Assembly (NCBI GenBank): GCA_017452445.1
Contig: JAFTMH010000002.1
Location: 723 to 64,722, forward strand
Direction: 5' to 3'
Source: Clostridia bacterium
Lineage (GTDB): Bacteria > Bacillota > Clostridia > Christensenellales > UBA1242
DNA: 64,000 bases
A program made the translations under genes and the position numbers. Shown piece after piece: positions 2,928 to 61,904 of this stretch (positions are counted from its first letter, which is position 1; every line of letters begins with the position of its first letter). The notes beneath the pieces were generated by a model that did no database searches, was not told where the DNA came from, and worked only from the letters and a program-made list of their open reading frames with translations.

Positions 2928-3641
2928 TTAGTTGTTGATTTGTCTTGTTGTGTCGATAATTTGTGCCGTTTTTGCCAAATTTAGACCCTTGTCGAAGTAT
3001 TGCACCTGATCATCATTGGTTGTTCTATAACCTAATCCACCATCTGCAAACCTAACACCTTCAATTTTGTTGTATTTTGGAGCCAACAAAACCCCTTCGT
3101 GCAACCCTGCAAGACCGTAGTGTCCTTTTTCAAAGAAAACAAATCGCGTTTCGTCCAAAAACTCAATTCTTCCTTCAAAACTTTTTGCAGTAAGAGTGTC
3201 AGCATCAATCAAATCTGTGCGAAATGATCCTTTGCAGGCAATAAACTTGCCAAAAAACAAAATCATATCATAGTTTGCCGGCACAACCACTTTGCCATGA
3301 TAATTGACAAGACCTTCCTTGCCATACTCTTGAAATCTCAAAACCCCTTGTCCAGCCGCCTTTTGTTCGCAAACGCTTTCCCAATCAGCTCTGTTGCAAG
3401 AAATGTCGAGCATTGTTGTCAAATCAACCCTTTCTTCCGGTTTAGCATTTTCATCTGAGAAGAATCTAAAAGATCCGTCTTGATTTTTTGTCATGCAAAA
3501 ACCAGAATTCTTTCCCAATGGATATACCTTTCCAATTTTAAAATCCAACACATCTTCAAGGTCATATCTTTCAAATTTTGGAACATTGTTTGTTTGTGTT
3601 TGTCTTGGTTTCTTTCTAAACATATCAAATAATACGCCCAT
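2928..3641 (-). CDS. hypothetical cytoplasmic protein with WG/KWG-like repeats
   Basis: 237-aa ORF with SD GGAGAAAG and a consensus promoter upstream. The units KEGLVNYHGKVVVPANYDMI and HYGLAGLHEGVLLAPKYNKI resemble WG-containing beta-propeller repeats. No signal peptide. Confidence 0.6.
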   Translation of the reverse strand: MGVLFDMFRKKPRQTQTNNVPKFERYDLEDVLDFKIGKVYPLGKNSGFCMTKNQDGSFRFFSDENAKPEERVDLTTMLDISCNRADWESVCEQKAAGQGVLRFQEYGKEGLVNYHGKVVVPANYDMILFFGKFIACKGSFRTDLIDADTLTAKSFEGRIEFLDETRFVFFEKGHYGLAGLHEGVLLAPKYNKIEGVRFADGGLGYRTTNDDQVQYFDKGLNLAKTAQIIDTTRQINN

Positions 3642-4568: not shown

Positions 4569-4591
4569 ATTAACAAGTTGGAGAGGTATTT

Positions 4592-7500
4592 ATGAAAACT
4601 AAAAACTTTTTATTTAGAAAAATATTTTATGTGCTTTTTGCATTCTGCATTTTTGGTGCAGGAATGTTTACCCTTGGCATAACTCAGAAACCAGGATTTT
4701 CAAAAGCCGAAAACACAATCTCAGAAGATGCAAGACAAGAAGACGCCGTGCCTTCTTATTTTTCTGCAAAAGAGTTTTTGGTTGATGGCAGCGACTCGAC
4801 AGAAAACTTTTCAAGTTTGATCAAGTCCAACACATTTATGTATTACAGCGAAGAGTCTGTTTCGACACAACTTCAACTCTCGCTCGCAACAAATGGTTTG
4901 ACAGCAAACACTGCCTCTACAAACGAAATTTACAAATATGTAAATTACGCAGATCCTCAAAACCTCACAAATTTCAACTTCTACAACATCTTTACAATTG
5001 AATTGAGCGTAAATGGACAAACTCAAAACCTCAATCCAGACTCATACACAACAAAGCCTGGTTTGTCATTCAACAATGCCGAATCATCACCTGTTGTAGA
5101 AACTTTTGAAATGAACTTCTCAAACCAAGCAACAGCAGGAAACAACATCTGCATTCTTGATGAAGATGGAAATGTTGTTGAAGGTTTGTATACACTTAAA
5201 ATCAGTTTGTTGCTTTTTACCTGTACTGATGGTGGAACAACTGCTGAAGAAGAACTTATCACAAGTGAAGGTGCAGACATTGTTTTCAACTTCTATGTGA
5301 TTGACAGAGAGTCTTATTTGCTCAACGGAAGACCAAATGTAGATTCTTACAATTTTGACCATTCGGTAAATGTGTCAAACCTTACAAATCCAACAGTTGC
5401 AAACTACTTCTACTCAAACTATTCGTCAAACGGCACAGCAGATCAAATTTCTTATATCGAATATGACTACACTCGTTTTGAAGTTGAAATCTCAAAAGAA
5501 ATTGGCGACAAAAATGGCGGAACAGTCAATGTGGTTTATGACCTTGACACTCAAGCCCCTGTTGTAAAGGGAGATCAACTTGTTTACACAACAGTAAACG
5601 AAGCAAACAAAACTTGCAGAGTGTTCTTCACAAATGTTGGAAACTATGTAGTAACTTACAAAGATATCCTTTTGATTGACTATCAAACAGCAGACGGACA
5701 AATCGCAAGAAAGTTTGCTTTGGTTGGATTGTCAAATGTGACAAAGAAACACCTTGTTTATGTTTATGGTTATCAAGCAAACTACACAGATTTTGACAAA
5801 CCTGCAATCAATGGAATCCGTCAAAACAGCGAGCTTAAATCATTTGACCTTGCGACAACATCTTATACAAATGGTGCAGACATCACAAGCAGATTCTTAA
5901 ATTCAGATGCAAGTTTTTCACAAGCAAATGCAACAACAACTTTCCTTGCATCAAACCTTACAAATTATATCAACACTTCAGGACTTAAACCTGTTGTAAC
6001 AGATCAAAAACCTATCGACTTTGACTCAAATGCAAAACTTGTTAAATCAAGCAGTTACATTTATTCAACAAAACAAATCTCAAACGCTTACAGTGCAACA
6101 TCTTACACAATCAATGGACAAACATTGTATAGAAAAGCATTTTCCGGAATCCCAGAAAGTTCTGAAGGCGTTTACCTTTACATAATCGCATATTCATTTG
6201 ACGACTTCTGGTCAAGCGAAACAATGTCAGGTGCGACAACAACTTTCTATCAAGCATTCTACTTTGAAATCAATGTTTCAATCCCAACAATCAAGATTTT
6301 TACAGCAGATGACAACACAAATGTTTCAACAGGAATGTTTGTAAACAGAGATGTCATTGTTGAAGACACAACACTTGCAAACATCTACAACAAAGATGTA
6401 ACAGTGCAAATCATCGCAAAAGACTATGACACAAACGGCTGGCTTACAGGGTTTGGCGACTCTTACGGCATAGCTTTGAAAGATTTGGTAAACGAAGGCG
6501 AAAATCGCATAACACTTTCTCGCAATGCCCACTACACAATCAAAATGTATTACACAAACGACATTGTTGAAAATGGACTTGCAAACGCACAATCTTTTAG
6601 AACTAGATATTTCACAATCGACAAAACAAGCGTGCAAGGCATCAAAGCAAGCAATGTTTCTGAAATCCCAGGATCAACAGACAGCAAGTTTGTTTCTGAC
6701 CTTAAACACTTCTCAACAAATCAAAACATTGTCCTTTCATGGCAAGAAAAAAACAGTGGCGCAGCAACTTATGCATATTATCGTTACTTCCCACTTGAAG
6801 AAACAACATATTACAGCACAAAAGAAAACCTTCTTTCTGCAACACTTGAAAGAATTTTGAGTTTAAGCAACCAAACAACTTATTTGCCTGTAAACTCTAT
6901 CTTGAACATGAGCACAACAAACAACGACTGGCTTTCATATTACGGAAACACAGCTCTTCTTGCAAACAAAAACAAAATTGCAAGCGACTATGTGCTTCCA
7001 GACTCAGGTTTGTATGTGGTTGATGTTTATGATGAAGCAGGAAACCACTCAATCGAAATCTTTATGATCGATCGCACAACACCTATTTTTGTGTTGTATG
7101 ATGGCAGCAGTTACAAAATCACAAGCACATCAATGTTTGTGTCAGAACAATCTACATTGTATTGGGGAGATTACAAAGGTATCCTCATCCAAAACTTCAA
7201 CACAGTTTCTTACACTGCTGGTTACACACCAGAAAACATCACAGAAAGTGATTTGGCAGGCAAAGATTTCTACATCGACAGAGAAGGAAACATTCGCACA
7301 GACATCTTTGCAGCAATGTACAACACTTTGAAGCGCAACAACTATTTGCAAAACTTGGCATTCAATGTTTCAATCGATTCGACCTATGGCGTTGATGTTG
7401 CAACTTATGCCGGAAACTATATCACAATCCCAATCAACGACATTTCTTACTTTATGGACAAAGCAAATCCAACTTACAAGGATCAAGTTGCTTCAAAACA

Positions 7501-10500
7501 AGAAATCCCTGTAACCCAAGAAATGACTTATCGTGTTTTGATCAGAGATATGTCAAACACAAAACTTGACCTCAACTATTCTGAAACAGCACTTATGCAA
7601 TATACAAACTTCTACAGTGCAAGACAAACATTGATCATCAGTTTTGACTCATCAGAATTCTTTATCGAATATCAAAACAGCAAAAAAGAAACCGAATATC
7701 TTACAACAAACAACACCGAAGAAATTGTAGGAGAAGGTGGACACACAACAAAGATTTCTTATCTCAACCCTACTCGCATGAACAAACCTTTGACATTGTC
7801 TTACAAACCTACAATCACAGATGGACTTCAAATTCAAGTAGAAAGCATCACAATCAACTATACACCTTATGTAAAAGCATACAAACTTGATCCTGAAACC
7901 GGCATAACTTATCACTATTACAAACTTTCAGATCACACAACACCTATCGAAGTTTACACTTACAATGGATCAAACCCTTCAGTTGACTTGAAAACTTACG
8001 ACATCAGCCTCAACTCTGACAATGTGACAACAGAAGGTAAATACGAAATTACAAGAACTTATTACCTTGGCGAAGGTTATACTTACAACGAAAACGATTT
8101 CTACAAACGCACTTATATCCTTTATGTGGATAGAAACGAAGTTATCTCAAACTCAGAAACAGTTTCAAATGCAGAAGGCACTGAAACTCACCTTGAAAGT
8201 TTGATTGGTGGAGATGTGTTTGTGTCAATGTATGACAACAAAACAAACGCTTCTTTGGTAATCACTTATCCAAACAGTCCAGAAGGCAACACAAATGGCT
8301 CTTCACTTTACAACAACGGAACAGTAAGATCAGTTTTGACAACAAATATGCTCCCAGTAAATGTGTATATCCCACAATATAAATACACAATCAGCTCAAA
8401 GAAAACACTTCTTAATGATGCTGGCGCTTACAAATATGAAGTTGAAAACAACGATGTTATGAACTTCTATGTTGAAGATGACGAAACAACTGATGGAGAC
8501 GAAACAAGAATCATCAGAGAATATGGTTTGTATGCCGAAATCTACAGAAATGGAACTGACAGCACAAATCTTATTGCAAAAACAGCAAGAACAAATTACA
8601 ACAATCCTTCTTTGGCAGATGTAGCAGCAGACGAAAACGGATTTTTGATCTTCTACAATGACAAAGGAAATGCATTGCAACAACTTATTGATGAAGGAAC
8701 ATATTATGTAAAACTTTATCAAGGTATGTTTGGCGAAGGTCTCGATGACAACCTCTACAAACAATCAATTACATTCAGTTTTGATATCGAAAGATCTGAC
8801 CCTAACTTTACTGCACAAACAACAACTGGTGGCGCATTGGTTAGCGACCTTGCAACAGTGCCAAATGCAACAGTAAAAGAAACATATTTCACAAATCAAG
8901 CAAATGTAAACATTCTTTGGGATGCCGGCAGTGATTATATGGCAGAAATTGACATTGAAAAAATCGTTTTCAAAACAAGCAAAGGACGCACATTCTCAAC
9001 TGCTGATGACATCTTTACAACAGCACCATTCTTGTCACAAAAGACATATTTGGCAACAATCAGCCTTGAAAAGTTGGATGTTTACCAACACAATGCTTAT
9101 GTTGACATCACAATGCAATACAAAAACCATGACAGCAGATTCTACAACACTGTAACAAAAAGAATTGCAGTTGACTTGTCTGCTCCAAGCACAAATGTGC
9201 AAGCTTTGGTTGAAAAATCACTTGCAAATCGTGCTTTGTACCCAACATTTACAAATGCAGCATTGCGTACTTATCGCACAGCCAAAGGCGATCCTGCAAC
9301 AACTTTGGACAACACAAGCTACAACATCAGCACAAGCACAGGAGATTTTGCATACTATTCTTACACAGTGACAAGTGCATATTTGCAAACATTGCAAACA
9401 ATCGTTGCAAACGAAGGATACATCACATATATCCGTTCGTTTACAGACCAAAATGGCGAAAACACAAAATATGTGACAGGTTCGCAAGAAACCTCTTACA
9501 CAGAATCATTGACAGGATTTAAGAATGTGACAGAAATCACACAACTTGATCCACACACATACTATGAAGTAGTTGAAACAGACAAGGCTGGAAACATGTC
9601 AATCTACACAATCTTTGTGATGGATTACACTGCACAACCTACTGTAAACAATGTTTGGGAATTGCCTGAAAACAACATCATCACTTATTCTGATGCACAT
9701 GGAAACTCTCACTTCTACACAATCGCAGATTATTTGGCAGTAAACGCTTATCCAAATGCAATCAACAACATTTTCTCAAAATCAGGATTTGCTCTCACAG
9801 AACTCAACTTGTTTAATGATGCTTGGGCACAATTCCAACTCAACACAATCAATCCAACTTCTGGCATCACAGTTTCTTACAACTTGATGTTGTCGCCTTG
9901 GAAGGCAAACAAAGCAATTGCTTATGGCGTCGCTGGAAACACAGAGTTTGATATTGACAAGTTGATCAACGGATCAGTTGCTTCTACAAGAAAACACAAC
10001 ATTGTTTTCCTCAACAGAGAAAATGCAACACCAACAACATTCTACATCAACATCAGAAACACAACATTGAATGCAACACTCACAACAGATCAAAACAGAG
10101 AATATATTCAATTTGCAATGCCTGCAGATGTAGAAATTCAATCACCTGATTATGCAACAACATTTGTTTCATCTCTCTCAATTTCTGCAGATGGTCAACT
10201 TATCTATCAACAAGAAAACAAACTTGGTTATGCAAGTTTGTGGAGATCAACAGACAATGTTGTGGTCACATCAAACCCAAGTGCAAAAACAATTATGTTT
10301 GAAATCAGCCAAGAACTTGGCTTTGCTCCAAACACAAGAATTGTCTATGAATATACAGACAACTATGGCACAACTTACAAAGAAATCCACCTTTACAGAG
10401 AAACAATCATCAGACAAGAAGTTTCTTCAAAAGAAGATTTGTATTCTTACTATGACAATGCAGGCATCTTGCATTACATCACAAAAGATGGATTTGTTTA

Positions 10501-12823
10501 CAACTACAACCCAAGCAAATATGTTGTAAAAACATTTGATTTCATCAACGGAACACAAAGCACAGATTGCGTAAATGCAACTTTGCAAACAACTCAATCT
10601 GCTGACGGAATCACAACAATCACCTACTTTACAACAGCAGAGGGTCGTCAATACAACCACAGTTTCATTATTGAAATTTGGGACGCTATGGACGAAACAA
10701 ACCTTATCAAAACAGTTCAATTTACACTTTACAACGAATTGCCTGTTGAAAACACAACAACAAACAACAACCTCCCTGGTCAATTTAAACTTTTGGATGC
10801 AAGCAGAAACAACATCACAAGCACAATCATTGGCGATGTTGCAGATTTGACTGGTTACTTCTCAGAAATCACAATCTTGTATGCAACAAGCGAAACATTC
10901 ATTCCTGTAAAATACTCAGTGAGCAGAGACAGAATCCATTGGGAAGAAATCTCTTCAGGCACAGTGCTTAGATGTCAATCAGACGATATGGAACAATATT
11001 ATCTTAAGATTTGGTATGACGAAACATATTTGCGCAACGAATATGATTCGACATCATATGTTTTTGGAAAAGTTTCAAATTCTCAAATCTATTCATTCAA
11101 CATTTCGTCATTGACTTCAACATTCTGGGTTGAAAAGACAGTAAATGGTCAAACATCAATCGTTGCAAAGAGTGATTCGATGTATAATGCGCCAGATGGC
11201 AAACAATTCTCAAATCACTATATTGTAAACTTGGATTACACACAAAGAGCCTCTGTAGAAATCAAAACAAACAAAGAACAAAAAATTGAACCTACACTTG
11301 TGTTTACATATCACGGTTCAAAGATTTCTTCAGAACATTGGACAATCACAAACAAAACTGCTGGTGACCTTGGAAATATCCCTGCATTTGAAACAAACAT
11401 CATCATCACATATATTCCAACATCAGACGATTTTGTTGAAGAATTCTATTCTCACAACGAAAACGGAATTATCGACACAACAACAAACCTTGTCAACAAC
11501 TCTTCTGCAAGCGTAGTGCTTTCACAAGTAACACTTGACAGAATCGAACTTCAATGGACAAAGTTTAACGGAATCAAAGAAAACGAAATCAACATTCTCT
11601 TGATTAAAGATGGCGTTGAAATGAATCCTACAATCTATTCAAGATCAACAGGCACAGGCGCCCACAAGAAAGAATACAACTATATGTATTTGACATATTC
11701 AGGAAAATACTCAATTTCGTTGTATGACACTGCTGGAAACATTCAAAAATTCAACCGTGGCAATTCTGGACAAACAGAATCATTGAATTTCATCTTCCTT
11801 AAAGATGTGCCATTTACAATGACATACACAGATGCTTTGACTGGCGAGGCAAAAACAATCCTTCCAATCAAACAATCAATCTTCAACGGAGATGTGACCG
11901 TAAACCTTGACAAGAAAACATTCCCTGATTTCTACACTGCTGTAGGCCCACAAGTTAAGATCAAGAAAAACGGCGTAGCTCTCACAAACTCAGAAATCAA
12001 AGAAATGACCACAGAAAACTCAAACACAAAACAATACAAGTTTAGTGGTGCTGGTTATTACGAAATCTCATTTGTGGCAGAAAGCAACATTCCAAACAAA
12101 GGAGAAATCAGATCAGAAACATACAGTTTCTCAATCGTAAATGAAAACGAATATAAATATTCTTACATTTACAACAAATATGGCTCTTATTATGTTGAAA
12201 AGGTAGAAAAAGATGGCAGAGACATCACAAGCACATTGCTCAAGATTTTGGATGTTTCAACAATCAAAATCAACAACAAGTCTTACATGACATCACTTCC
12301 ACTTTCTTATCTCGACGACAAAACTGGCGCTGGTGTTTACACAATCACAATCAACACAAACAACAACTTGATCAAAGCTGACAACATTACATCAACATTC
12401 AGCTACAAAGTGACAATCCGTTCTGGATCTGCACCAATCAAGATTTCAGTTGCACAAGGAAAGGCAACAACAAAAGCAGTTGCAGTTTCATTCAACGCAG
12501 CAAACATCTATGAAGAAATGGGTGAATGCACTTTGAAGATTGTTCGTTACTCAACAGATGGCAAATATGCCGGAGCAATCTATTCATTGAAAATCAATGC
12601 AACGACTCTTGAAGAAGAAGAAACAACAATCCCTGCTGGCGATTCTGGAACATATTATGTTCAAATCGTTTCACCAAGTGGAAACTTGTTGTATAGTTAC
12701 AGAGTTGAAAAGAAAGAACCTATGAACCCTGCTTCAATCATCATCATTGCCGTTGCAGCAATTTTGGTAGTTGTGCTTATCATTGTGATTTACAAGTTGA
12801 GAAAGCGTATTTCTGTAAAATAA
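4592..12823 (+). CDS. giant (2743 aa) N/T/Y-rich surface protein with N-terminal signal anchor and C-terminal TM anchor
   Basis: Uninterrupted 8232-nt ORF with a strong SD. The N-terminus is KIFYVLFAFCIFGAGMFTLGI. The C-terminus is ASIIIIAVAAILVVVLIIVIY followed by KLRKRISVK (TM ~12731-12793). Scattered G-x-Y-x-[VI] ... D-x-A-G-N strands (GLYVVDVYDEAGNHS, HTYYEVVETDKAGNMS, GKYSISLYDTAGNIQ) suggest Ig-like modules. No enzymatic or known anchor motif was recognised. Confidence 0.85.
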   Translation: MKTKNFLFRKIFYVLFAFCIFGAGMFTLGITQKPGFSKAENTISEDARQEDAVPSYFSAKEFLVDGSDSTENFSSLIKSNTFMYYSEESVSTQLQLSLATNGLTANTASTNEIYKYVNYADPQNLTNFNFYNIFTIELSVNGQTQNLNPDSYTTKPGLSFNNAESSPVVETFEMNFSNQATAGNNICILDEDGNVVEGLYTLKISLLLFTCTDGGTTAEEELITSEGADIVFNFYVIDRESYLLNGRPNVDSYNFDHSVNVSNLTNPTVANYFYSNYSSNGTADQISYIEYDYTRFEVEISKEIGDKNGGTVNVVYDLDTQAPVVKGDQLVYTTVNEANKTCRVFFTNVGNYVVTYKDILLIDYQTADGQIARKFALVGLSNVTKKHLVYVYGYQANYTDFDKPAINGIRQNSELKSFDLATTSYTNGADITSRFLNSDASFSQANATTTFLASNLTNYINTSGLKPVVTDQKPIDFDSNAKLVKSSSYIYSTKQISNAYSATSYTINGQTLYRKAFSGIPESSEGVYLYIIAYSFDDFWSSETMSGATTTFYQAFYFEINVSIPTIKIFTADDNTNVSTGMFVNRDVIVEDTTLANIYNKDVTVQIIAKDYDTNGWLTGFGDSYGIALKDLVNEGENRITLSRNAHYTIKMYYTNDIVENGLANAQSFRTRYFTIDKTSVQGIKASNVSEIPGSTDSKFVSDLKHFSTNQNIVLSWQEKNSGAATYAYYRYFPLEETTYYSTKENLLSATLERILSLSNQTTYLPVNSILNMSTTNNDWLSYYGNTALLANKNKIASDYVLPDSGLYVVDVYDEAGNHSIEIFMIDRTTPIFVLYDGSSYKITSTSMFVSEQSTLYWGDYKGILIQNFNTVSYTAGYTPENITESDLAGKDFYIDREGNIRTDIFAAMYNTLKRNNYLQNLAFNVSIDSTYGVDVATYAGNYITIPINDISYFMDKANPTYKDQVASKQEIPVTQEMTYRVLIRDMSNTKLDLNYSETALMQYTNFYSARQTLIISFDSSEFFIEYQNSKKETEYLTTNNTEEIVGEGGHTTKISYLNPTRMNKPLTLSYKPTITDGLQIQVESITINYTPYVKAYKLDPETGITYHYYKLSDHTTPIEVYTYNGSNPSVDLKTYDISLNSDNVTTEGKYEITRTYYLGEGYTYNENDFYKRTYILYVDRNEVISNSETVSNAEGTETHLESLIGGDVFVSMYDNKTNASLVITYPNSPEGNTNGSSLYNNGTVRSVLTTNMLPVNVYIPQYKYTISSKKTLLNDAGAYKYEVENNDVMNFYVEDDETTDGDETRIIREYGLYAEIYRNGTDSTNLIAKTARTNYNNPSLADVAADENGFLIFYNDKGNALQQLIDEGTYYVKLYQGMFGEGLDDNLYKQSITFSFDIERSDPNFTAQTTTGGALVSDLATVPNATVKETYFTNQANVNILWDAGSDYMAEIDIEKIVFKTSKGRTFSTADDIFTTAPFLSQKTYLATISLEKLDVYQHNAYVDITMQYKNHDSRFYNTVTKRIAVDLSAPSTNVQALVEKSLANRALYPTFTNAALRTYRTAKGDPATTLDNTSYNISTSTGDFAYYSYTVTSAYLQTLQTIVANEGYITYIRSFTDQNGENTKYVTGSQETSYTESLTGFKNVTEITQLDPHTYYEVVETDKAGNMSIYTIFVMDYTAQPTVNNVWELPENNIITYSDAHGNSHFYTIADYLAVNAYPNAINNIFSKSGFALTELNLFNDAWAQFQLNTINPTSGITVSYNLMLSPWKANKAIAYGVAGNTEFDIDKLINGSVASTRKHNIVFLNRENATPTTFYINIRNTTLNATLTTDQNREYIQFAMPADVEIQSPDYATTFVSSLSISADGQLIYQQENKLGYASLWRSTDNVVVTSNPSAKTIMFEISQELGFAPNTRIVYEYTDNYGTTYKEIHLYRETIIRQEVSSKEDLYSYYDNAGILHYITKDGFVYNYNPSKYVVKTFDFINGTQSTDCVNATLQTTQSADGITTITYFTTAEGRQYNHSFIIEIWDAMDETNLIKTVQFTLYNELPVENTTTNNNLPGQFKLLDASRNNITSTIIGDVADLTGYFSEITILYATSETFIPVKYSVSRDRIHWEEISSGTVLRCQSDDMEQYYLKIWYDETYLRNEYDSTSYVFGKVSNSQIYSFNISSLTSTFWVEKTVNGQTSIVAKSDSMYNAPDGKQFSNHYIVNLDYTQRASVEIKTNKEQKIEPTLVFTYHGSKISSEHWTITNKTAGDLGNIPAFETNIIITYIPTSDDFVEEFYSHNENGIIDTTTNLVNNSSASVVLSQVTLDRIELQWTKFNGIKENEINILLIKDGVEMNPTIYSRSTGTGAHKKEYNYMYLTYSGKYSISLYDTAGNIQKFNRGNSGQTESLNFIFLKDVPFTMTYTDALTGEAKTILPIKQSIFNGDVTVNLDKKTFPDFYTAVGPQVKIKKNGVALTNSEIKEMTTENSNTKQYKFSGAGYYEISFVAESNIPNKGEIRSETYSFSIVNENEYKYSYIYNKYGSYYVEKVEKDGRDITSTLLKILDVSTIKINNKSYMTSLPLSYLDDKTGAGVYTITINTNNNLIKADNITSTFSYKVTIRSGSAPIKISVAQGKATTKAVAVSFNAANIYEEMGECTLKIVRYSTDGKYAGAIYSLKINATTLEEEETTIPAGDSGTYYVQIVSPSGNLLYSYRVEKKEPMNPASIIIIAVAAILVVVLIIVIYKLRKRISVK

Positions 12824-23920: not shown

Positions 23921-23946
23921 CAAAAATAAAAACACCCGATGGGTGT
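23921..23946 (-). terminator. intrinsic terminator of dnaX-ybaB-recR
   Basis: Stem ACACCC (23932-23937) / GGGTGT (23941-23946) with loop GAT, abutting the recR stop. On the minus strand it is followed by TTTTTATTTTT. Confidence 0.8.
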
Positions 23947-24539
23947 TATATTTCTTTTCTGTCTGCGATTGCTTTGCTGAGAGTGATTTCATCTGCAAAT
24001 TCGATGTCGCTGCCCATTGCAATGCCTTGAGCAAGTCTTGTAACTTTAACTCCCATTGGTCTAAGAAGTTTTGCAACATACATTGCTGTTGCTTCCCCTT
24101 CAACATCTGGGTTTGTCGCCATAATAACTTCTTTGACATCATTTGTTGAAACTCTTGCAAGCAACTCTTTGATGCGAATGTCGTTTGGACCTTTGTTTTC
24201 AAGTGGATTGATACAGCCAAAAAGCACATGGTAAACCCCATCAAAACTTTTTACCTTTTCCATTGAAATAATATCCTTTGGTTCTTGCACAACACAAATG
24301 ATTTGTTTGTTTCTTCTTTGACAGATTGGACAAACTTCGCTTGCACTATAATTTCCACATTCTTTGCAAAGTTTAACCTTTTCCTTTGCATCAACAATCG
24401 CTTTTGCAAAGTTTTCGGCTTTCTCTTTGTTGTTTTCGATAATGTAGAAAGCATATCTTTGTGCAGTCTTTTTTCCAACCCCTGGCAATGATCTAAAATA
24501 TTCAATCAATCTTTCAATTGGTTCTTCAAAATCTGCCAT
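23946..24539 (-). CDS. recR: recombination protein RecR
   Basis: 197 aa. It has the HhH (LPGVGKKTAQRYAFYI), the C4 zinc finger (CKECGNYSASEVCPIC) and Toprim. It sits in the dnaX-ybaB-recR synteny. Confidence 0.95.
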   Translation of the reverse strand: MADFEEPIERLIEYFRSLPGVGKKTAQRYAFYIIENNKEKAENFAKAIVDAKEKVKLCKECGNYSASEVCPICQRRNKQIICVVQEPKDIISMEKVKSFDGVYHVLFGCINPLENKGPNDIRIKELLARVSTNDVKEVIMATNPDVEGEATAMYVAKLLRPMGVKVTRLAQGIAMGSDIEFADEITLSKAIADRKEI

Positions 24540-24541
24540 AA

Positions 24542-24859
24542 TTACATACCCAAGTTTGGCAATTTGTTCTTTTCGTCTTCTGCAATCTTGTTGAGAGCAT
24601 CGCCAAGTGCAGATGCAACCAAATCTTCCAACATTTCTACATCATCTGGATCAACAACTTCTGGTTTAATTCTTACAGACTTTACTGTTCTGTTTCCGTA
24701 AAGTGTAACTTCAACCATGCCGCCACCTACAGAAGATGAATATTCTGTGTTGTCGATTTCTTCTCTAGTTCTTTTCATATCTTCTTGCATTTTTTGGGCT
24801 TGTCTCATAAGTTGTTGCATATTTGCTCCACCGAAGCCACCACCAAATCCGTATGCCAT
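24542..24859 (-). CDS. ybaB: nucleoid-associated protein YbaB/EbfC
   Basis: 105 aa: …MQQLMRQAQKMQEDMKRTREEI…GGGMVEVTLYGNRTVKSVRIKPEVVDPDDVEMLEDLV…. SD AAGGAGAG. Confidence 0.92.
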   Translation of the reverse strand: MAYGFGGGFGGANMQQLMRQAQKMQEDMKRTREEIDNTEYSSSVGGGMVEVTLYGNRTVKSVRIKPEVVDPDDVEMLEDLVASALGDALNKIAEDEKNKLPNLGM

Positions 24860-24871
24860 ATCTATCTCTCC

Positions 24872-25219
24872 TTAATCTTCAAAAACCACTTTGTTGCCAA
24901 AGAAGTTTTCAATTTTTTTAATATCTTTGTTTATTTTTTGTTCGGAACTTTCATATTTGACAACTTCAAATTTCAAGTCCAAACCTTGCCAGCGAATAGC
25001 ACTTTCAATTTCTTTTCTGCCCGATTCGAGCACATCAACCAAAAAGCCGTCGCTTGACCTAACAATCAGTTGGTCTCCATCAATCTTTGCATTTGTGATG
25101 TCCCCACAAGCGACATGAAGAGCAACCTTTTTATGTTCTTTCAAATAAAGCACAATCTTTCCCCAAACATTGTTTGCAGAAAGTTTTGATGCATCTTTTT
25201 CAATTTTCAGTTTTTTTTT
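24872..25219 (-). CDS. dnaX: tau-specific C-terminal segment of DnaX, open only in the -1 frame relative to dnaX
   Basis: From the A9 run, the -1 frame reads K-LKIEKDASKLSANNVWGKIVLYLKEHKKVALHVACGDITNAKIDGDQLIV…VVFED* with no stop. It has no SD or ATG of its own (the track begins it at an internal GTG). The W-x-x-I-L-x-x-L-K…L pattern matches the Firmicute DnaX C-terminal domain. Confidence 0.7.
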   Translation of the reverse strand, partial: KKKLKIEKDASKLSANNVWGKIVLYLKEHKKVALHVACGDITNAKIDGDQLIVRSSDGFLVDVLESGRKEIESAIRWQGLDLKFEVVKYESSEQKINKDIKKIENFFGNKVVFED

Positions 25220-26310
25220 ACATCAAATCCAAGCATTGCAGTAAGGCATGTTGTTTCGAGCAACAATCTTACTGACAAAGTGTATCTCAATTCGCTTTCG
25301 GCACTTGAAAACACTTGCATATATCTGATAAGTTCTTTCTCTTCAAACTTGTCTGCCTGCTCTTTATACATAGCAAAAATATCTTCAGTCAAATTCAAAA
25401 TTTCGTTTGCATTTGCACATGATTTGCACACAAGCAAATTTCTTGCATGCTTTGACAAGTCTTTTGAAAACACTGCCAAATTTTTGCCATCTTTTTCGAT
25501 TTGATCAATAAGTCCAAGCACTTGACCAACATCTTTGTCCTTAACTCTGTCAAAGAAGTTTATGATCAATTCGTGATCGGTAGAACCAAGCACGCTCAAC
25601 GCTTTTTCTTTTGTTATTTCACCTTGGCAATATGATGCGATTGAATCTGCAATTGAAAGAGTGTCTCTCACACTGCCTTCGCCTGCGCTTGCAATGATCT
25701 TCAAACTTTCTTCATCATATTTGATGCCTTCTTTGTCAAACACCTTTGCCAAATGTTTTGCAAGTTCGTCAACAGACACAAGTCTAAAATCAAATCTTAC
25801 ACATCTAGACAAAATTGTTTGTGGCAATTTGTGAACTTCTGTTGTAGCCAAAATAAAGATTACATATGAAGGTGGCTCTTCCAATGTTTTGAGAAGTGCG
25901 TTGAAAGCACTGTCTGACAACATATGAACTTCGTCCACGATATAAACTTTGTATTTTGCGCCAACAGGCATAAATTTTACTTTTTCTCTAATTTGACGGA
26001 TATCATCAACTTTGTTGTTTGATGCAGCATCAATTTCGATGATGTTGATGTCGTTTTCTTGCTCCAATCTCTTGCAGTTTTCACATTGTCCACAAGCTGA
26101 GCCATGGTCAGGTGTAAGACAGTTTACAGCTTTTGCCAAAATCTTTGCAATGCTTGTCTTTCCCGTACCACGAGAGCCAGTAAAAAGATAGGCATGACCG
26201 ATTTGATTGTTTACAATCTGATTTTGCAATGTTTTTGCAATGTGGTCCTGCCCAATCACTTCATCAAAAGTTTTTGGTCTGTATTTTCTGTAAAGAGCAA
26301 TATGATTCAT
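25207..26310 (-). CDS. dnaX: DNA polymerase III subunit gamma/tau, zero-frame product (domains I-III, 367 aa)
   Basis: It has Walker A GSRGTGKTS, the Zn module CGQCENC, DEVHML, and sensor SRC. SD GGAGAAAAA. Confidence 0.92.
   Translation of the reverse strand: MNHIALYRKYRPKTFDEVIGQDHIAKTLQNQIVNNQIGHAYLFTGSRGTGKTSIAKILAKAVNCLTPDHGSACGQCENCKRLEQENDINIIEIDAASNNKVDDIRQIREKVKFMPVGAKYKVYIVDEVHMLSDSAFNALLKTLEEPPSYVIFILATTEVHKLPQTILSRCVRFDFRLVSVDELAKHLAKVFDKEGIKYDEESLKIIASAGEGSVRDTLSIADSIASYCQGEITKEKALSVLGSTDHELIINFFDRVKDKDVGQVLGLIDQIEKDGKNLAVFSKDLSKHARNLLVCKSCANANEILNLTEDIFAMYKEQADKFEEKELIRYMQVFSSAESELRYTLSVRLLLETTCLTAMLGFDVKKN
25211..25219 (-). other. A9 slippery run (candidate -1 frameshift or transcriptional-slippage site, or a homopolymer indel)
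   Basis: The minus strand reads GAT GTA AAA AAA AAC TGA. The heptamer A_AAA_AAA is in X_XXY_YYZ phase, and the zero-frame stop is one codon later. Confidence 0.6.
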
Positions 26311-26322
26311 TTTTTCTCCGTT

Positions 26323-27072
26323 TTAGTAAGTTTCTTTGCACATAATTGCAAAGTTTTCAACATCAAGGCAAGCCCCACCAACAAGCACACCGTTGACTGT
26401 GTCATTTGCCAAAATCTTTTTGTAATTTGACAAATTTACACTTCCACCGTAAAGCACTGTAAGTTTTTCTTTTGCCTTTGCTGAATATAAGTATTCAATT
26501 TCGTTTCTAATTGTTTCCATCATCTTTGTGATGTCTTTGTTTGTAGGAACTTTTCCTGTGCCGATCGCCCAGATAGGTTCGTAAGCAATTGCAACACTGT
26601 CAAGTTCGTTTTCGTAAATGCCTTTCAAATCTTCGTCAAGTTGTTTCTTAACAAATGCTGTCGCTTGTTTCGCAGTGCGAGTTTGCAAGTTTTCACCAAC
26701 ACAAAGCACAACTTTAAGTCCGTTTGCAAGGGCTGTTTTGATTTTTTTGTTGATAAGTCGGTCAGTTTCTTTATACTTTCCTCTTCTTTCTGAGTGACCA
26801 ATGATTGTATATGTCGCACCAGAATCTTTTATCATACTTGCACTGACTTCACCAGTGAAAGCACCTTTTTCTTCATCAGAAATGTTTTGTGCACCAAATT
26901 CTACTTTGCTGTGTTCCAAAAGTTCGCCAGCCAAATGCAAGTGTGTAAATGGCGGACATACAACCACATCGTTTTTTGTCCCCTTAACCTTTGTTGCAAG
27001 TGTCATTGCATAATTTTTGAACTCGCTAGGCTTGGTGTTCATTTTAAGATTTCCAATGATAAGTTTTTTCAT
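26323..27072 (-). CDS. tpiA: triose-phosphate isomerase
   Basis: 249 aa with the motifs IIGNLKMN, IIGHSERR and AYEPIWAIGTG. SD AAGGGAGAAG. Confidence 0.96.
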   Translation of the reverse strand: MKKLIIGNLKMNTKPSEFKNYAMTLATKVKGTKNDVVVCPPFTHLHLAGELLEHSKVEFGAQNISDEEKGAFTGEVSASMIKDSGATYTIIGHSERRGKYKETDRLINKKIKTALANGLKVVLCVGENLQTRTAKQATAFVKKQLDEDLKGIYENELDSVAIAYEPIWAIGTGKVPTNKDITKMMETIRNEIEYLYSAKAKEKLTVLYGGSVNLSNYKKILANDTVNGVLVGGACLDVENFAIMCKETY

Positions 27073-27096
27073 AACTTCTCCCTTCTTGTTTTCAAA

Positions 27097-28266
27097 TTAG
27101 ATGCTGTCAATAACATCAATTGCAGCCAAAACTTTACCTTCCATAAGTTTCAAACTTGCACCACCACCTGTTGAAAGGTGATTGATTTTGTCAGAAACCC
27201 CAACTTGATTGATAGCACTCAAACTGTCGCCACCACCAACAACTGAATAGGCTTGACTCTTTGCAACGGCTTTTGCAATTTTTGTTGTACCTTTTTTAAA
27301 TCTGTCATCTTCAACTTTGCCGACAGGTCCATTCCAAAGGATTTGTTTTGCATTTGCGATTTCGTTTGCAAACATCTTGATTGTTTTTGGACCAATGTCA
27401 AATCCAACCATGCCTCTTTCAAGGATTTCTGTTTTCACTGCTTTATCTTTTTCGGCAATCAATGCCATGTGATCGATTGGAAGCAAAATTTTTACGCCTT
27501 TTTCTTCTGCAACTTGCATCAAGTCTCTTGCGTCATCGACCAAATCAAGGTCAACAATAGAGTCCCCAATATTATATCCTTTTGCTTGCAAGAATGTGTA
27601 TGCCATGCCCCCACCAATGATGATGGAATCTGCCTTGTCAATAACATTGTTGATAAGTTTAAGTTTGTCAGAAACCTTTGCCCCACCAAAGATAGCCACA
27701 AAAGGTCTTTGAGGTTTTTCAAACGCTTGTCCAAACACTTGAAGTTCTTTTTCAATACAATAACCAATTGCGCTTGGAAGTTTGAGAGCAACACCATAAT
27801 TTGAAGCATGCTTTCTGTGAGCAACACCAAAAGCATCGTCAACATAAAGTTCTGCCAAAGAAGCAAGTTTTTGAGCAAAGTCAGCAGAGTTTTCTTCTTC
27901 GCCAGGGTGGAATCTCAAGTTTTCCAAAACCAAGATTTCTCCATCTTTCAATTTTGCTACAGCATCCTCCACTTCAGGTCCAACAACCTTTCCACAAAAC
28001 TTAACTTTGTTTGGAAAACACTTCATCAAATAAACAGCCACTGGAAAGAGCGACAAATATTTGTCATAACCATTTGGTCTGCCAAGGTGAGAGCACACAA
28101 TAAGCTTTGCACCATGCTTTGACAAATGTGTAAGTGTAGGCAATGTTGCCACAATACGACTGTCGTCCAAAATATCGCCATAATTGTCAAGAGGGACATT
28201 GAAATCACAACGCACCAAAATTCTCTTGCCTTTAATATTTTTTAAATCTCTAACTGTTCTTTTCAT
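27097..28266 (-). CDS. pgk: phosphoglycerate kinase
   Basis: The motifs RCDFNVPL, FGGAKVSDK and STGGGASL are present. The ATG at 28266 (MKRTVRDL) follows SD GAAGGA. The track start at 28338 is an unsupported extension. Confidence 0.95.
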   Translation of the reverse strand: MKRTVRDLKNIKGKRILVRCDFNVPLDNYGDILDDSRIVATLPTLTHLSKHGAKLIVCSHLGRPNGYDKYLSLFPVAVYLMKCFPNKVKFCGKVVGPEVEDAVAKLKDGEILVLENLRFHPGEEENSADFAQKLASLAELYVDDAFGVAHRKHASNYGVALKLPSAIGYCIEKELQVFGQAFEKPQRPFVAIFGGAKVSDKLKLINNVIDKADSIIIGGGMAYTFLQAKGYNIGDSIVDLDLVDDARDLMQVAEEKGVKILLPIDHMALIAEKDKAVKTEILERGMVGFDIGPKTIKMFANEIANAKQILWNGPVGKVEDDRFKKGTTKIAKAVAKSQAYSVVGGGDSLSAINQVGVSDKINHLSTGGGASLKLMEGKVLAAIDVIDSI

Positions 28267-28340
28267 ATAAAAATCCTTCTTCAATAGTTTACACCATTTG
28301 CCTTGTAAATCAAAACAAATTGAAACAAAAATTTTCAAAC

Positions 28341-43291: not shown

Positions 43292-46200
43292 TTATTGGTT
43301 TGAAAGTTTTCTTCTGCGTTTTCTTCTCTTTCTTGTAAGAACGAGAATGACAATCACTGTCACAACAAGTGCCGCTCCAAGAAGTCCTATCAAATAGAAA
43401 TACCAAGAAGCCGTTTTGTTTGAAAGCAATCTAGACGCTGTAGAAACTTCGCCAAACAAACCATCATAGCTTACTCTCTTGTAAACATAAGCGTTTTGCA
43501 CACCTCTGACTGTGTGTCCATTGAAGTTGAACACTCCTTCAAATGGGTGAAGAATTGTGCCGATTGGTGTCCAGAATTTTTCTGACAAATCAATGTTGCG
43601 TGCCAATTCGTAATGCATTCTAGAATAGAGTTCGCCATTTGCATTTCTTGCTCCACTGTTTACCAACTTCATAAGAAGAGTAAGTTCGGTCGTAGAGCCA
43701 ATCTTGTAAGGATTCTTTTCGCTTCCTTGTCCAGCAAAGCCGGTGATAAAGATTGATTCGTCTTCCCAATGCATACGGCTGTAAACAATTGACAAATTGA
43801 TAATGCCAACAATGTTGTTTTCTTGCATATATTCTGGTGTCAAAAGGATAGTGTTTGTGTCATCGTCATAAAACTCATACATATCCCCAAAAGATTTGCC
43901 ATAATTTTCGATTGTTATCGAAACAATTTCATATCTCTTTGTTGTCGCTGTTTCAAGCAAAATTTCTTTGCCTGTTTCCATCACAACAACTTTTGTCGCC
44001 CTGCCGTTATGCTTGATGCTTCCGGCAGCAGCAATGTTGTTTTGATCCAAAGTCTTGTCGACAATGTCGATTGGGTCAAACGAACTTGAAACATAAAGCG
44101 AAACGATTGTGTTGTCAAAGGTTGGTACAATTTCGATAATTTGATCTGCCATTGCTGTGCCGACCTTCATTTCAAAATAATAGAAACCTTTGTCGTATCT
44201 TCCAAATGTAATTTCAGCCCTATTCCAATAAACAGCAAAACCACTGTCAACCTTGATCTTAAATTCTACAGTGTCACCAACATTTACCAAAACTTGTGTG
44301 ATTGTTTTTTCAAAAGTTCCGTTTGAGTAATAACCCATTTCGTAAGTCGCCTTTGACAAGTTGAGTGAATATGCTGCAACTTGAACAATTTGTCCAAATT
44401 GAGGTGAATATTCTTCAAACCAAAGTGTTGCAGGTCTTCCTGACAAATTGATAACAAGTGTTGCCTCTTTGTCAATTTGCAATGTGATTGTTTGATCTTC
44501 AAAATCTTCGTCTTCATGCAAAACAGACCATGATTCAAATGTATATCCCCCAATTGGAAGAGCTTCGATTGTAAATGTTTTTTCGGTGTCAACATAATTT
44601 TCAAGCAACAATGCTTTTGATTGTGCATCAGCATTGTCTTGTGCGATCTTGAAGTTTGCTTCACCACCAGAAACCAAAACTTCGACATGTGCATAATAGA
44701 TGATTTTGATTTGACATTCTACAATTCTGTCAACATCATTTGTTGACCATGGAGTTTGTGGTGTGTAAATCAAAACATCTTGCAACCATACCCCTGCGTG
44801 ATTGCGTTGTGAAAGAATAAACGCATAGAATTTGTATCCCTCAAACTCTGGTGCAGAGATAACGATTGGTGTGTTGAATGACACTTCAATGTAGTGTGGT
44901 GATGTTTCGTAGAACCAAGAATTTGAGAAGTCAACACCTGAAACCATATCCTTTGCAGTGTATTTTGTGTCAATTTCAGGGACAAAGTTGAATTCGATTC
45001 TTGTCTTCAAATAAGCCCAATACAAATAAAGTGTAATTTCAATTTCGCCTGTCTCTTCGTTTACAACTTTTGCATGAGTGCTAAGTTTGTAAAGTGAAGT
45101 AATTGTATCCAAAATGTAACCACTTTCAGCCCAGCTGTTGATTGCTTCGCCGTTTGCGTTGATGTATCTTACACCAGCACCGTTTTCGTATGTGAAGAAA
45201 CCTTCAAAGCTGTGGTTTTCTCTCTTCATTGCATCAAATCTGAGTTTTCCACCCATAAATCCAAGACGATCATCAACAAGTGTGATGTTTGCTGTGTTTT
45301 CTTCAGAAAGATTGAGTGTTGAGCCAAATGTAACATCTTTGATGATTGCAAGTGTTTGACCATCTTCAACCAATCTTACAGAATACAATGATGTAAACAC
45401 CAAAATGCTGATTGTGTTTTCTTTGATATAATCTGCAACTTCAAATTTAATTCTTCCAGTATAGCCAGATTGTTCGATAACCAAATCTTCATATTCGAGT
45501 GATCCTTCAACAATCAAACCACTTTCATCAACAATGCCTGTGCCATCATTTTTCCAATAATAGCCGGCTCTGATGTAAGCATACACAACAAATCTGCTGT
45601 CTGTGTAAGCAGAAACTTGTGTGTAAGTCATTTGATTTCCTGAAGTCCAAACTTTGTGTGCATTGTTTTCATCAAGACCGATGTCAAATGCACCACCATC
45701 AACTCTGATATCGTTGTTTAAGAATGCCAAGTTGATTGTGTTGAGCACTGGCTTGATCAAGATTTCAAAGTCAAAATCTTCGCCACCGATAAATTCGTTG
45801 AACACAAACATAATGTAGTCGTCTGTGCGTTCGTAAATATCAAATGCGATATCATCTCTGCTTGAAACAATCTTGTCAAACACATAACCTTCTTTTTCGA
45901 TCACGAGTTTGATATATACTTCGTCACCTGTGTATGCGACAACAGAGAATTTCTTGTTGTCCAAAAGTTCTTCGTCAACAAAATCTTCTTCGCTGTAGTG
46001 GATTCTTGTTCCGTCAACATAACCAAATCTGTTTACATCTTCAGCATCTGCATTTGAAAGATTGATGTATGCAGTGTTGAAGTTGTTTTCTCTGATGCCA
46101 TCAATGTTGATTTCTGTGATAAAGTTGAATGATGAGCCATACGCTTCAATCAACAAATACAAAGTAAATTCTTGCACTTCTTCGTCAAACAACGAGCTTA

Positions 46201-49200
46201 TCAAAGAAACTGTTGCAAGTTGATCTGTGACAGAAGTTTTTGTCAAGAAAACAAATTCGTCTTCTTTCCAGAAACCATAACCTGCATATTTGTATCCTTC
46301 TTGCACTTCAAGCAAAATATTTTTGCTTGCACCGTAATAAATTTCGGCAGAAGTGATTTGCTCTGAAGTTTCTTCATCATAATATTTGCTTTCAACTTCT
46401 TCAAAAACATTTTCTGTTTTTGTAGGGTCGTTGTATTCGGTGTAGATTTGATAGTAGTTGTATGTTGCAAAAGTTACATAGAATTTCATTGTTGAGAAGA
46501 TTGCGTAAAGTCTTATATTGTCTGTAATTGTGTATCTTTGTCCGTTTGCCGAACCAAAAACATTTTCACCATCTTCACTCCAACCAGCAAAGCTATACAA
46601 AGTCGCAGTCTCATATGTCAATGTGATTGTTGACAAATATTCGACTTGAAGTGGATTTTCGCCATCTGCCAATGCGATATTGCCTGGCTCGTTGACAAGT
46701 TCTCTGTCTTGGTTGTATGACAACACTTCGATTGTCACAGTAAACTTGGCGCGAGCGTGATAGATTTTGATGTTGCCACTTGAATAAATTTCCGAAACAA
46801 TGATTTCGCATTGATTTGAAGAAATTTCTCTTGCTCTTGTTTCAAACTCGTTAGTTTCGTTGAAACCATAAGTGTAACCGTGTTTGTAAACAATGCCCAA
46901 TTTCAAAATTTGTGCTGTTTCAATCTCAACAACATCAACTTGTGTTGGATCTGCATATGTGAGATCTCCGACCATAACTCTTTCAACTTTTGTGATATCT
47001 TCAAATTCAATCGTAATACGGTTGATTTGTTCTTCTGCTTCAAAAGTGATTTCCAAATCTTGGAAGATGCCAACGATTTGCATAATGAGTGTGCCATTGC
47101 TCAATGTCTTGTCAACAATCAAACCTAAAGTGCTGTCAAACTCGACATTGTCTGTCATTTGATATCCTCTGCTTGCAGTCGCAACAAGTCTGATTGTTTT
47201 GCCTGTTTCGATGTCAAATGCTTTGTCAACCACTGTGATTGGGATTTCGTCAATCGTAATGTCAAATGCTGTTACGCCTTCAACAAACGATCCTTTTGTC
47301 ACAACCCTGTTTATTCTGGCAACAATTGGCAATGTGTAAACATAGTCATTTGCTGTCATCACAAACACAACTTGAAGTGATCCATCTGCATTTGTTGTGG
47401 TTGTAAATTCTGGAGCCCAAGTTGCTTCAAAAACATAACCTTGATTTGCAACAAGTTTAAATGAAATTTCTTTCAAATATTCGACATCGTTTGCAATATA
47501 CAAGTTTCCACCCTTTGTAAATTCGAGTGTTGAATTTTCAATTCGGCCATTCAAAACTGTAAACAAAATTGTGGATTTGTTGATATCCCATTGGGCTGTG
47601 AGTGTGTGTTCTTGTGTGTAAGACACAATGCTTGTGCCAACAATCATGTTTGAGTTGTGGTCAAACCAACCAACAAATTGATATCCGTATCTTGAAGGAG
47701 CTTCGTCCCAACCTTCTGCATCTTGATATGGTGCATCATAAGAAACTGCAATTGATTTTGTGATGCCGTCATAGCCATAATCCAAAATGACTACCAAACC
47801 AATTGATGTGTAGACAGGGACAAACGAAATGATTTCGTCATCAAATTCTGATTCCACAAATGATGAAATCAAAGTTGTAGAATACATCTCTTTTGCAATT
47901 TCTGTTGCACCAACTTTGAGTGCAATAGTTTCATAACCAACTCTGTCAATTGATGGCAAGAAATCCAACTTTCTTGATTCAATTTCAAAATAACTGAGTG
48001 TGAGTTGATATCTTCCCGTTTCAACCAAGTTGAAATTGCCTGCAACAATGGCAGCTTCTGGGTGTTCGGTCAAATCAAGTTCGAGTGTGATTTTTTGAGA
48101 TCTAAATCTTACAATCAAGTTGTATTCTCTTGTCACACTTTCAAATCCGATTCTGTTTCCATTGATAAGGATTGTTGTGCCATCTGCTTCATAAGCATTT
48201 GCCGAATCTCTATAGAAACCAAAGAATTTGCTGTGTGCATTTGCAGTTGCAATAAATGTTACACCCTTTCCATATTCGACTTGTTGACGATATGTTGTTG
48301 TAACAAATCTGTTTTCTGTTGAATCATCTCTATCATCAATTTCAACTGATCCATATTGAGCGTTTCTTCCGTTTTCGTCAGCAATTGTGATGTTGACATT
48401 AAACTTGTTTACACTCCACATAGCAGTAAATGTGATTGTGATATCTTCGTGATTTTTGTAATAATATTTGTTTAATGTATCTTCTTGATCTCTGAGCAAC
48501 GAATTCAAGAAGTTTGCAGTTTTTGCATCGTTTGCAACAATGACTGAAAGTTCGCCCTTGTTGTAAGTCGCAGTCATCGCATAGTTTGAAATCAAACTTT
48601 GCAAGAATGTATATTCTTCTGTTTCAGTAGCAATGTTTCTGAAAATCATTACCCAATGCGAGAATGAGTGTCCCGTTTTGCCAGTAAGCATTGTTGGAAA
48701 GTTTTTGTTTGTGCTTGTTTGTGTGTTTGCAGAGTTTGATGTAATGTTTGAAGCAGAAACAAATGGATATGCCAATTCTGAAATTTCAACCAATCCATTG
48801 ATGATGACATCAGATCTTGTTTCTTCTTCTGTGTTGTCATCAAATTCGATAAACACAATCACAGGGTTGATTACACCATGGTTCCATGTGGCAATTGTGT
48901 AGTTTTGACTGTCAACACCATCAATGTTGATTGTCACAACAATGCCTTCGCCAATCGTTTCTCTTGCATAAGTTGCAGAAACAATCGCAACATCATCATA
49001 AACCCCACCTTTTGTGATAATGCCTGTGATGCCAAGCACTTCTGTGCCATCTCGCACAAGTTCGACATCAACTGTTTCGTCATAAGTTTTTGTAAAGATT
49101 TCTTGGAAACTCAAGTTTGACATTGTTACCAAAGTGAGTTCAACCTTTTCAACCACAAATGAAGCACCTGTTGTTGATGGTTGTTCGGCATTGTCAACAA

Positions 49201-61819: not shown

Positions 61820-61904
61820 TGGATTTCTCCTTGATATTACTTAAATTTCTACCTGTTAATATTTTACAATAAAATCATGAAATAAACAAACAAAAATTTA
61901 AAAG

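Follow-up and report, generated by a model that had tools for sequence, protein, structure and literature searches.

Does the dnaX gene in this stretch of DNA really end one codon after a run of nine adenines, and if so, how would the tau subunit be made? The stretch, here called the window, is 64 kb long and has a GC content of 36.9%. The first-pass annotation had read the run as a recoding site at which a slip, either of the ribosome or of RNA polymerase, would give a tau of ~479 aa, and it had named a homopolymer sequencing error as the trivial alternative. The features concerned are as follows.

25207..26310, minus strand: zero-frame ORF of dnaX, a gamma-like product of 367 aa ending ...GFDVKKN(stop)
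25211..25219, minus strand: A9 run, pure A (T9 on the plus strand), the candidate recoding site
25207..25209, minus strand: zero-frame TGA stop, one codon (AAC) past the run, which ends the gamma-like product
25200..25202, minus strand: third-frame TGA stop (ACT GAA AAT TGA), which would end A8 and A11 mRNAs after VKK(K)TEN
24872..25210, minus strand: putative C-terminal extension of tau, 112 codons of the -1 frame (LKIEKD...VVFED) and TAA

On the minus strand, the 3' end of the gene reads ...GGA TTT GAT GTA AAA AAA AAC TGA, and the stop one codon past an in-phase A9 was therefore read correctly from the start. The zero-frame ORF is a DnaX homologue spanning clamp-loader domains I-III. This follows from the placement of three Pfam domains in it, DNA_pol3_delta2 (residues 21-176), DNAX_ATPase_lid (184-228) and DNA_pol3_gamma3 (232-365). 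The NCBIfam models dnaX_nterm and PRK05563 matched the ORF with 452 and 508 bits, respectively, and the proposed extent of 367 aa over domains I-III was thus confirmed. As the third base of the Val codon GTA is the first A of the run, the heptamer A_AAA_AAA lies in the X_XXY_YYZ phase, as had been claimed, and this phase is conserved in all the related loci described below.

We found that the A9 feature exceeds chance expectation, because the run is the sole homopolymer of at least nine bases within the window and because the other KKK tripeptides in the window's genes (n = 4) are all interrupted by AAG, being written AAA AAG AAA (three times) or AAA AAG AAG. Runs of A8 or T8 occur only six times in the window. 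The genome avoids long A runs in coding sequence. From codon usage (AAA makes up 75% of the Lys codons and GTA 15.5% of the Val codons), an all-A V-K-K-K would be expected in ~6.6% (0.066) of independent lineages.

From the run, the -1 frame stays free of stops for 113 codons, up to a TAA at 24874..24872. Its translation, KKKLKIEKDASKLS...VVFED followed by the stop, agrees with the earlier reading; one example of a peptide within the predicted tau C-terminal domain is VALHVACGDITNAK. Searches of Pfam and NCBIfam with the C-terminal piece alone gave no matches, so a profile-profile comparison was needed to establish homology. In HHalign, the profile of the C-terminal piece matched unbroken DnaX proteins of other Clostridia and of Bacilli at their C-termini with 98% probability (E = 1.7e-13), and the homology covers the last ~100 residues of those proteins. 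The claim that the segment is the conserved DnaX C-terminus is borne out by this match. The joined protein aligns over its full length with NF011514 and NF011523.

In the A9 lineages, strong purifying selection acts on the -1-frame segment. Among seven distinct A9 loci it had neither stops nor indels, and its dN/dS was 0.095, compared with 0.057 in the N-terminal part, with dS above 1. A wider alignment of 38 sequences had 21 invariant columns in this segment. An AlphaFold (AF2) model of it had a pLDDT of 83 and a small alpha/beta, KH-like fold. A Foldseek search of the PDB with this model returned weak matches only (best E 0.018); DnaA domain I and DciA were at the top, and domain V of E. coli tau (2AYA) was a weak match at rank 11. 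The model is consistent with a domain-V-like module of the KH type. The tau C-terminal domain contacts the replicative polymerase in other bacteria, and the domain encoded here would presumably bind it too.

The first-pass annotation had proposed a comparison of dnaX in related genomes, and we carried it out on DNA from 42 related loci, obtained from a GTDB representative, from metagenome contigs and from exact-protein look-ups. The sampled guts were those of human, rabbit, chicken and others, and several assemblers had been used. Both the run and the frame break turned out to be conserved: A9 with the break was found in 34 of the 42 loci and A10 with one continuous ORF in the other 8, all of the evidence being metagenome assemblies, almost all probably from short reads. 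In every one of the 42 loci the run consists of uninterrupted A, and the codon whose third base opens it is GTA, GCA, TCA or TTA. Only one close relative, locus L001, was among the matches listed in the scan of GTDB genomes. In one human-gut species, covered by 130 blocks of the collection, A9 was present in 10 of 10 independent contigs, one of them at 174x. The zero-frame stop of the relatives lies 1-3 codons past the run (AAC TGA, AAC TAA, AAC TTA ATT TGA or AAC TTA AAT TAA).

Protein clusters gave the same result. With the joined 479-aa sequence as query, 120 clusters were found, comprising 110 of the A9 type and 9 of full length; 100 of the A9-type clusters end ...KKN(stop), and the remaining 10 are the same allele under genetic code 4, reading ...KKNW.... 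A second search was seeded with P0088, a full-length protein with 63% identity, and all of its 111 new clusters (111/111) end at the same place. Altogether 221 clusters end early (...KKN(stop) or equivalent), that is 96%, and 9 are full length. The residue before the run is V, A, T, S or L in these clusters. A homologue search with the C-terminal part as query found separately called short ORFs only, without the full-length A10 proteins, and it is thus no gauge of the allele ratios.

Among relatives at ~50% identity, which belong to other Christensenellales-like Clostridia, dnaX is mostly unbroken, with 490-530 codons. One match was named Candidatus Caccovivens, a genus placed by GTDB in the order Christensenellales, family UBA1242. 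Because other Christensenellales have unbroken genes, the dnaX break probably arose independently in the UBA1242 lineage. Taken together, the conservation of the break, the purifying selection and the homology support the view that the A9 in dnaX is a genuine, evolutionarily fixed recoding site that would give the ~479-aa tau first suggested.

The surroundings of the gene were also compared. The order pgk-tpiA-dnaX-ybaB-recR spans 23946-28338 on the minus strand, with pgk-tpiA upstream of dnaX and the following two ORFs, named by synteny and length, downstream.

24542..24859, minus strand: ybaB-like ORF of 105 aa, directly downstream of dnaX
23946-24539, minus strand: recR-like ORF, after the ybaB-like ORF

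This order is kept in close relatives, where Pfam YbaB_DNA_bd and RecR are found. In L094, an A10 relative that is more distant, dnaX is preceded by gidA-gidB instead. In relatives, LRR_5 proteins adjoin recR. The window also contains two giant ORFs, of 6183 codons (43292-61840, minus strand) and 2750 codons (4574-12823, plus strand), which are almost without Pfam matches; the larger one has a weak InlB B-repeat and a YDG domain only. They are presumably giant surface proteins.

How, then, might the frame be changed? The three frames around the run have the same pattern in every lineage. The frame that an A10 message would enter reaches the tau C-terminus after 114-123 codons, the A9 frame stops after N, NLI or NLN, and the A8/A11 frame stops after T, TN, TEN, TDK or TKND (1-4 sense codons). 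Both non-tau frames thus end within 1-5 codons in all lineages, across at least seven differing post-run contexts (CTGAAAATTGA, CTGACAAATAG, CTAAAAATGACTAG, CTTAAATTAA, CTAATTAG, CTTAATTTGA and CTGAAAATTAA). In the window's genes, both off-frames stop so early at 0.4-2% of random codon boundaries; the argument from these stops is a statistical one, since AT-rich genes quite often have early stops out of frame.

We also searched for elements that might stimulate a ribosomal frameshift. No conserved SD-like (GGAGG-like) motif was found upstream of the run, where the 14 nt vary freely among the relatives. Neither was there a conserved hairpin near the run: the consensus folds had energies of -4.8 kcal/mol downstream and -1.5 kcal/mol upstream, and alignment folds on either side of the run contained no covariation. 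The nearest local hairpin begins ~27 nt downstream of the run and is unconserved, compared with a usual spacing of 5-9 nt. Folds of single sequences had z-scores mostly between -2 and +1. An Rfam scan of the region returned two chance-level matches only, and the DnaX element was unmatched even at E up to 10. Given the z-scores and the lack of covariation, an RNA structure upstream or downstream of the run was ruled out as a stimulator.

A plain run of 9-10 A plus a stop in each of the other two frames is the design known from Thermus, and transcriptional slippage is favoured for this reason. We consider slippage of RNA polymerase on the T9 template to be probably, but by no means securely, the main route to tau; the preference comes from this anatomy and from the analogy with Thermus. 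On the choice between a ribosomal and a transcriptional slip, which had been left open at first, the anatomy points to slippage of transcription rather than to a stimulated -1 frameshift. Under the proposed mechanism, standard decoding of A9 would yield the 367-aa gamma-like subunit with domains I-III, and a -1 change of frame at the run, the sole route to tau, would add the C-terminal domain to give ~479 aa. Slipping on T9, RNA polymerase would produce a pool of mRNAs mixed in the length of the A run. Messages with A10 or A13 (+1 or +4 A) would encode tau, those with A9 or A12 (0 or +3 A) gamma, and those with A8 or A11 (-1 or +2 A) a gamma variant ending ...KKKTEN. Slippage of the ribosome by -1 on A_AAA_AAA may add to the output of tau. 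We infer both that the polymerase and not the ribosome slips and what the tau:gamma ratio would be.

Programmed -1 frameshifting of the ribosome would be the main route if two tRNA-Lys slipped back on A_AAA_AAA of an A9 mRNA, with VKKKLK at the junction, and we regard it as possible but rather unlikely. It would yield an identical tau protein, and the heptamer is kept in the correct X_XXY_YYZ phase in all the loci. The E. coli dnaX frameshifts at A_AAA_AAG, and some reversed dnaX cases in Chlorobi are apparently ribosomal (Atkins et al. 2016, PMC5009743). However, A_AAA_AAA is far less shift-prone than A_AAA_AAG in E. coli (PMC5009743), and neither a conserved SD-like stimulator, nor a hairpin at 5-9 nt, nor the Rfam DnaX element accompanies it here. 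Moreover, the full run of 9-10 A is conserved, not merely the 7 of a heptamer, and a -1 slip never enters the third frame, yet that frame has a conserved early stop.

The alleles of the run bear on a further explanation. The full-length A10 forms are scattered tips within A9-dominated clades. Their identity to the nearest A9-type protein is 94% for P0001, 89.6% for P0088 and 99.5-99.7% for P0003 and P0004; the A10 protein P0002 shares 98.9% identity with P0090 of the A9 type, and the A10 protein P0004 shares 99.7% with the A9-type P0085. At the DNA level, L091 (A10) differs from L098 (A9) by 29 substitutions over 4.1 kb and by the run length. The mix of A9 and A10 represents either a within-species polymorphism of run length or a few wrong assemblies. 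If the alleles do coexist within one species, as the pairs L091/L098, P0002/P0090 and P0004/P0085 would have it, replication slippage could keep subpopulations of both at the DNA level, and the A10 cells or alleles could supply tau. We find such phase variation improbable. A replicating cell always requires tau, as is established for E. coli, and still 96% of the clusters have A9 as their assembly consensus, as does the contig at 174x coverage. A minority subpopulation with A10 would be unable to rescue the A9 cells, and the scattered position of the A10 forms in A9-dominated clades also speaks against it.

It is very improbable that the gene is split or decaying, with the 367-aa product as the only one that matters and the C-terminal piece as a separate small protein or a pseudogene remnant. 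Such a reading might be suggested by the public annotation, where the downstream ORF (89-125 aa) is called a 'hypothetical protein' in 352 clusters, and by the junction CTGA, which resembles a stop/start overlap. However, decay is excluded by the dN/dS of 0.095 with saturated dS, and the start codon is not conserved. The starts picked by gene callers for this ORF vary among the relatives. Two codons 5' of the run, a stop closes the -1 frame of the window sequence, and the earliest ATG, GTG or TTG of this frame is a GTG that would give an ORF of 93 aa; this GTG is GTT in L084, L089, L090 and L091. The CTG overlapping the TGA stop in the window is CTA or CTT in other lineages. The invariant residues W19-G20-K21 sit upstream of the window's first start codon in the -1 frame, and no promoter-like or terminator-like site was found between the two dnaX ORFs. 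Independent initiation of the C-terminal ORF was ruled out, as the starts are unconserved and invariant residues lie upstream of the possible starts; judging from these comparisons, the -1-frame segment cannot be expressed on its own.

The least credible explanation is a homopolymer error of sequencing or assembly in a genome that truly has A10 and one continuous ORF, for, although A9 versus A10 is a classic miscall and a few relatives were assembled as A10, the error is excluded by the recurrence of A9 in 34/42 loci and 221/230 protein clusters, across dozens of independent studies, assemblers and hosts with saturated synonymous sites, and in all ten contigs of one species, by the fact that A10 assembles where it is present, and by the conserved early stops in both alternative frames, for which an error leaves no reason.

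An extension of the zero frame through genetic code 4 (TGA = Trp) was ruled out, as the 6183-codon ORF has 53 TGG and no TGA codons. Under code 11, the long ORFs in the window show no breaks, and the code-4 extension is an out-of-frame reading of the conserved C-terminal domain. Public calls of 373 or 389 aa that end ...KKNWKLKKM... are the A9 allele read with TGA as Trp, a gene-caller artefact. The clusters of this type are P0006, P0013, P0015, P0026, P0029, P0083, P0084, P0086, P0089 and P0092. In P0084 (626 aa), Pfam TIM (PF00121) and the DnaX domains stand in one call with a ...KKNW... tail, and its sequence suggests that it is probably a code-4 read-through joining tpiA to dnaX.

We compared the locus with known cases of recoding. 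The first-pass annotation had called the logic inverted relative to E. coli. The zero frame does give gamma here, so that part stands, but the inversion is not new (PMC3711429, PMC5009743). Antonov et al. 2013 (NAR 41:6514, PMC3711429) described two-ORF poly-A dnaX genes, in which tau requires recoding, in Chlorobi, Bacteroidetes and Verrucomicrobia, with 17 genes from 12 genera, 12 of them with a poly-A of 7-10 A. The cases named there are from Chlorobi, Flavobacterium, Cytophaga, Capnocytophaga and Coraliomargarita and mostly have A10; the reversed two-ORF arrangement is restated by Atkins et al. 2016 (PMC5009743). By sequence, the window locus has every testable defining feature of this class. 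In both, the zero frame gives a gamma-like product and stops directly past the shift site, the -1 frame encodes the tau C-terminus, a homopolymer A run sits at the end of domain III, and the arrangement is conserved across genera; in both, the prediction was made from sequence only, and the annotation does not treat the two ORFs as one gene. The window locus differs from that class in that it is in Clostridia and has A9, and in that both A9 and A10 states are seen within the family, apparently even within species. We found no report of the reversed dnaX arrangement in Clostridia or Firmicutes in the literature searched.

In Thermus thermophilus, dnaX undergoes transcriptional slippage on A9, giving mRNAs with a variable number of A (Larsen et al. 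2000, PNAS 97:1683, as cited in PMC1088944 and PMC5009743). As far as those accounts describe it, the Thermus gene shares with the window a sense-strand A9 at the gamma/tau boundary and nearby stops in both non-tau frames, and neither requires stimulators of ribosomal frameshifting. The roles are exchanged: according to the same accounts, tau is templated in Thermus and slippage gives gamma, whereas in the window gamma is templated and slippage would give tau. The Thermus orientation is seen in the A10 relatives (L090-L097) and in the more distant L004 and L016. With the -1 frameshift of E. coli dnaX, the window shares the gene, the domain boundary, the phase of the lysine-codon heptamer and, by prediction, two products with domains I-III in common. 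It lacks the defining SD-like and stem-loop/Rfam features of that element. The E. coli site is A_AAA_AAG with an SD-like element and a stem-loop, whereas the heptamer in the window ends in A, not G, is accompanied by no upstream SD-like element, downstream stem-loop or Rfam match, and works with reversed logic. Slippage also restores a longer ORF in Shigella flexneri mxiE and in the poly-A rescue of Buchnera and Blochmannia genes (cited in PMC1088944 and PMC5009743). As those cases are summarized there, their longer functional product, like tau here, needs a non-templated base in a homopolymer run; the tracts in the endosymbionts, whose genomes are very AT-rich, are described as mostly fortuitous rescue of decay, unlike the single, family-wide conserved site in a 37% GC genome that avoids long A runs.

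Runs of this kind were also seen further away. Two distant Clostridia MAGs (52-53% identity) have an in-frame A9/A10 at the domain III boundary (L004:3647-3656 and L016:2787-2796), and so do nine loci of Chitinophagaceae (L043, L060, L062, L067, L068, L073, L076, L079 and L080), where the run lies near 3604 (in L068, at 1332). The runs in L004, L016 and the Chitinophagaceae are followed by early stops in both alternative frames, and tau is templated, as in Thermus. These sequences suggest that poly-A slippage in dnaX has been used recurrently. The in-frame A9/A10 of the distant relatives further suggests that the Thermus orientation is ancestral and that the loss of one base then swapped the roles.

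Another dnaX break was noticed in the Clostridia MAG E22__bin106 (L015:3560-3700, 51% identity), where the gene is broken after ~382 codons and the C-terminal domain continues in another frame without a long A run (...CACAAAAACAAAAAACATAGG...). This break may reflect a faulty assembly, a pseudogene or another recoding site.

A more speculative idea, which we hold to be doubtful, is that the A run is a heritable rheostat: with sufficiently efficient slippage, A9 (gamma templated) or A10 (tau templated) would each yield both subunits, and replication slippage could toggle the family between them, even inside one species, thereby resetting the tau:gamma ratio of the replisome. A 'one-nucleotide role reversal' of dnaX was raised as a possibility by Atkins et al. 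2016 (PMC5009743), and the rheostat, if true, would be a natural demonstration of it.

The locus also matters for annotation. Public annotation splits dnaX into a 'DNA polymerase III subunit gamma/tau' of 367 aa and a 'hypothetical protein', or presents chimeric code-4 read-throughs. As a result, annotation pipelines, estimates of MAG quality and counts of pseudogenes are wrong at this locus.

The clamp loader cannot be coupled to the polymerase without tau. If the recoding is true, an essential replication protein would depend on non-standard decoding in every cell of a lineage of widespread, uncultured gut Clostridia. The kind of arrangement is already known, and what is new is its setting in Clostridia, by which the reversed dnaX arrangement would be extended to a third major bacterial group, the Bacillota. 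Well-studied members of this group, such as B. subtilis, are thought to make tau only. A family with gamma as the default product would bear on the long debate over the purpose of gamma, and it may offer a clean and very widely conserved case of an essential replication subunit that depends on slippage, with both genomic orientations coexisting.
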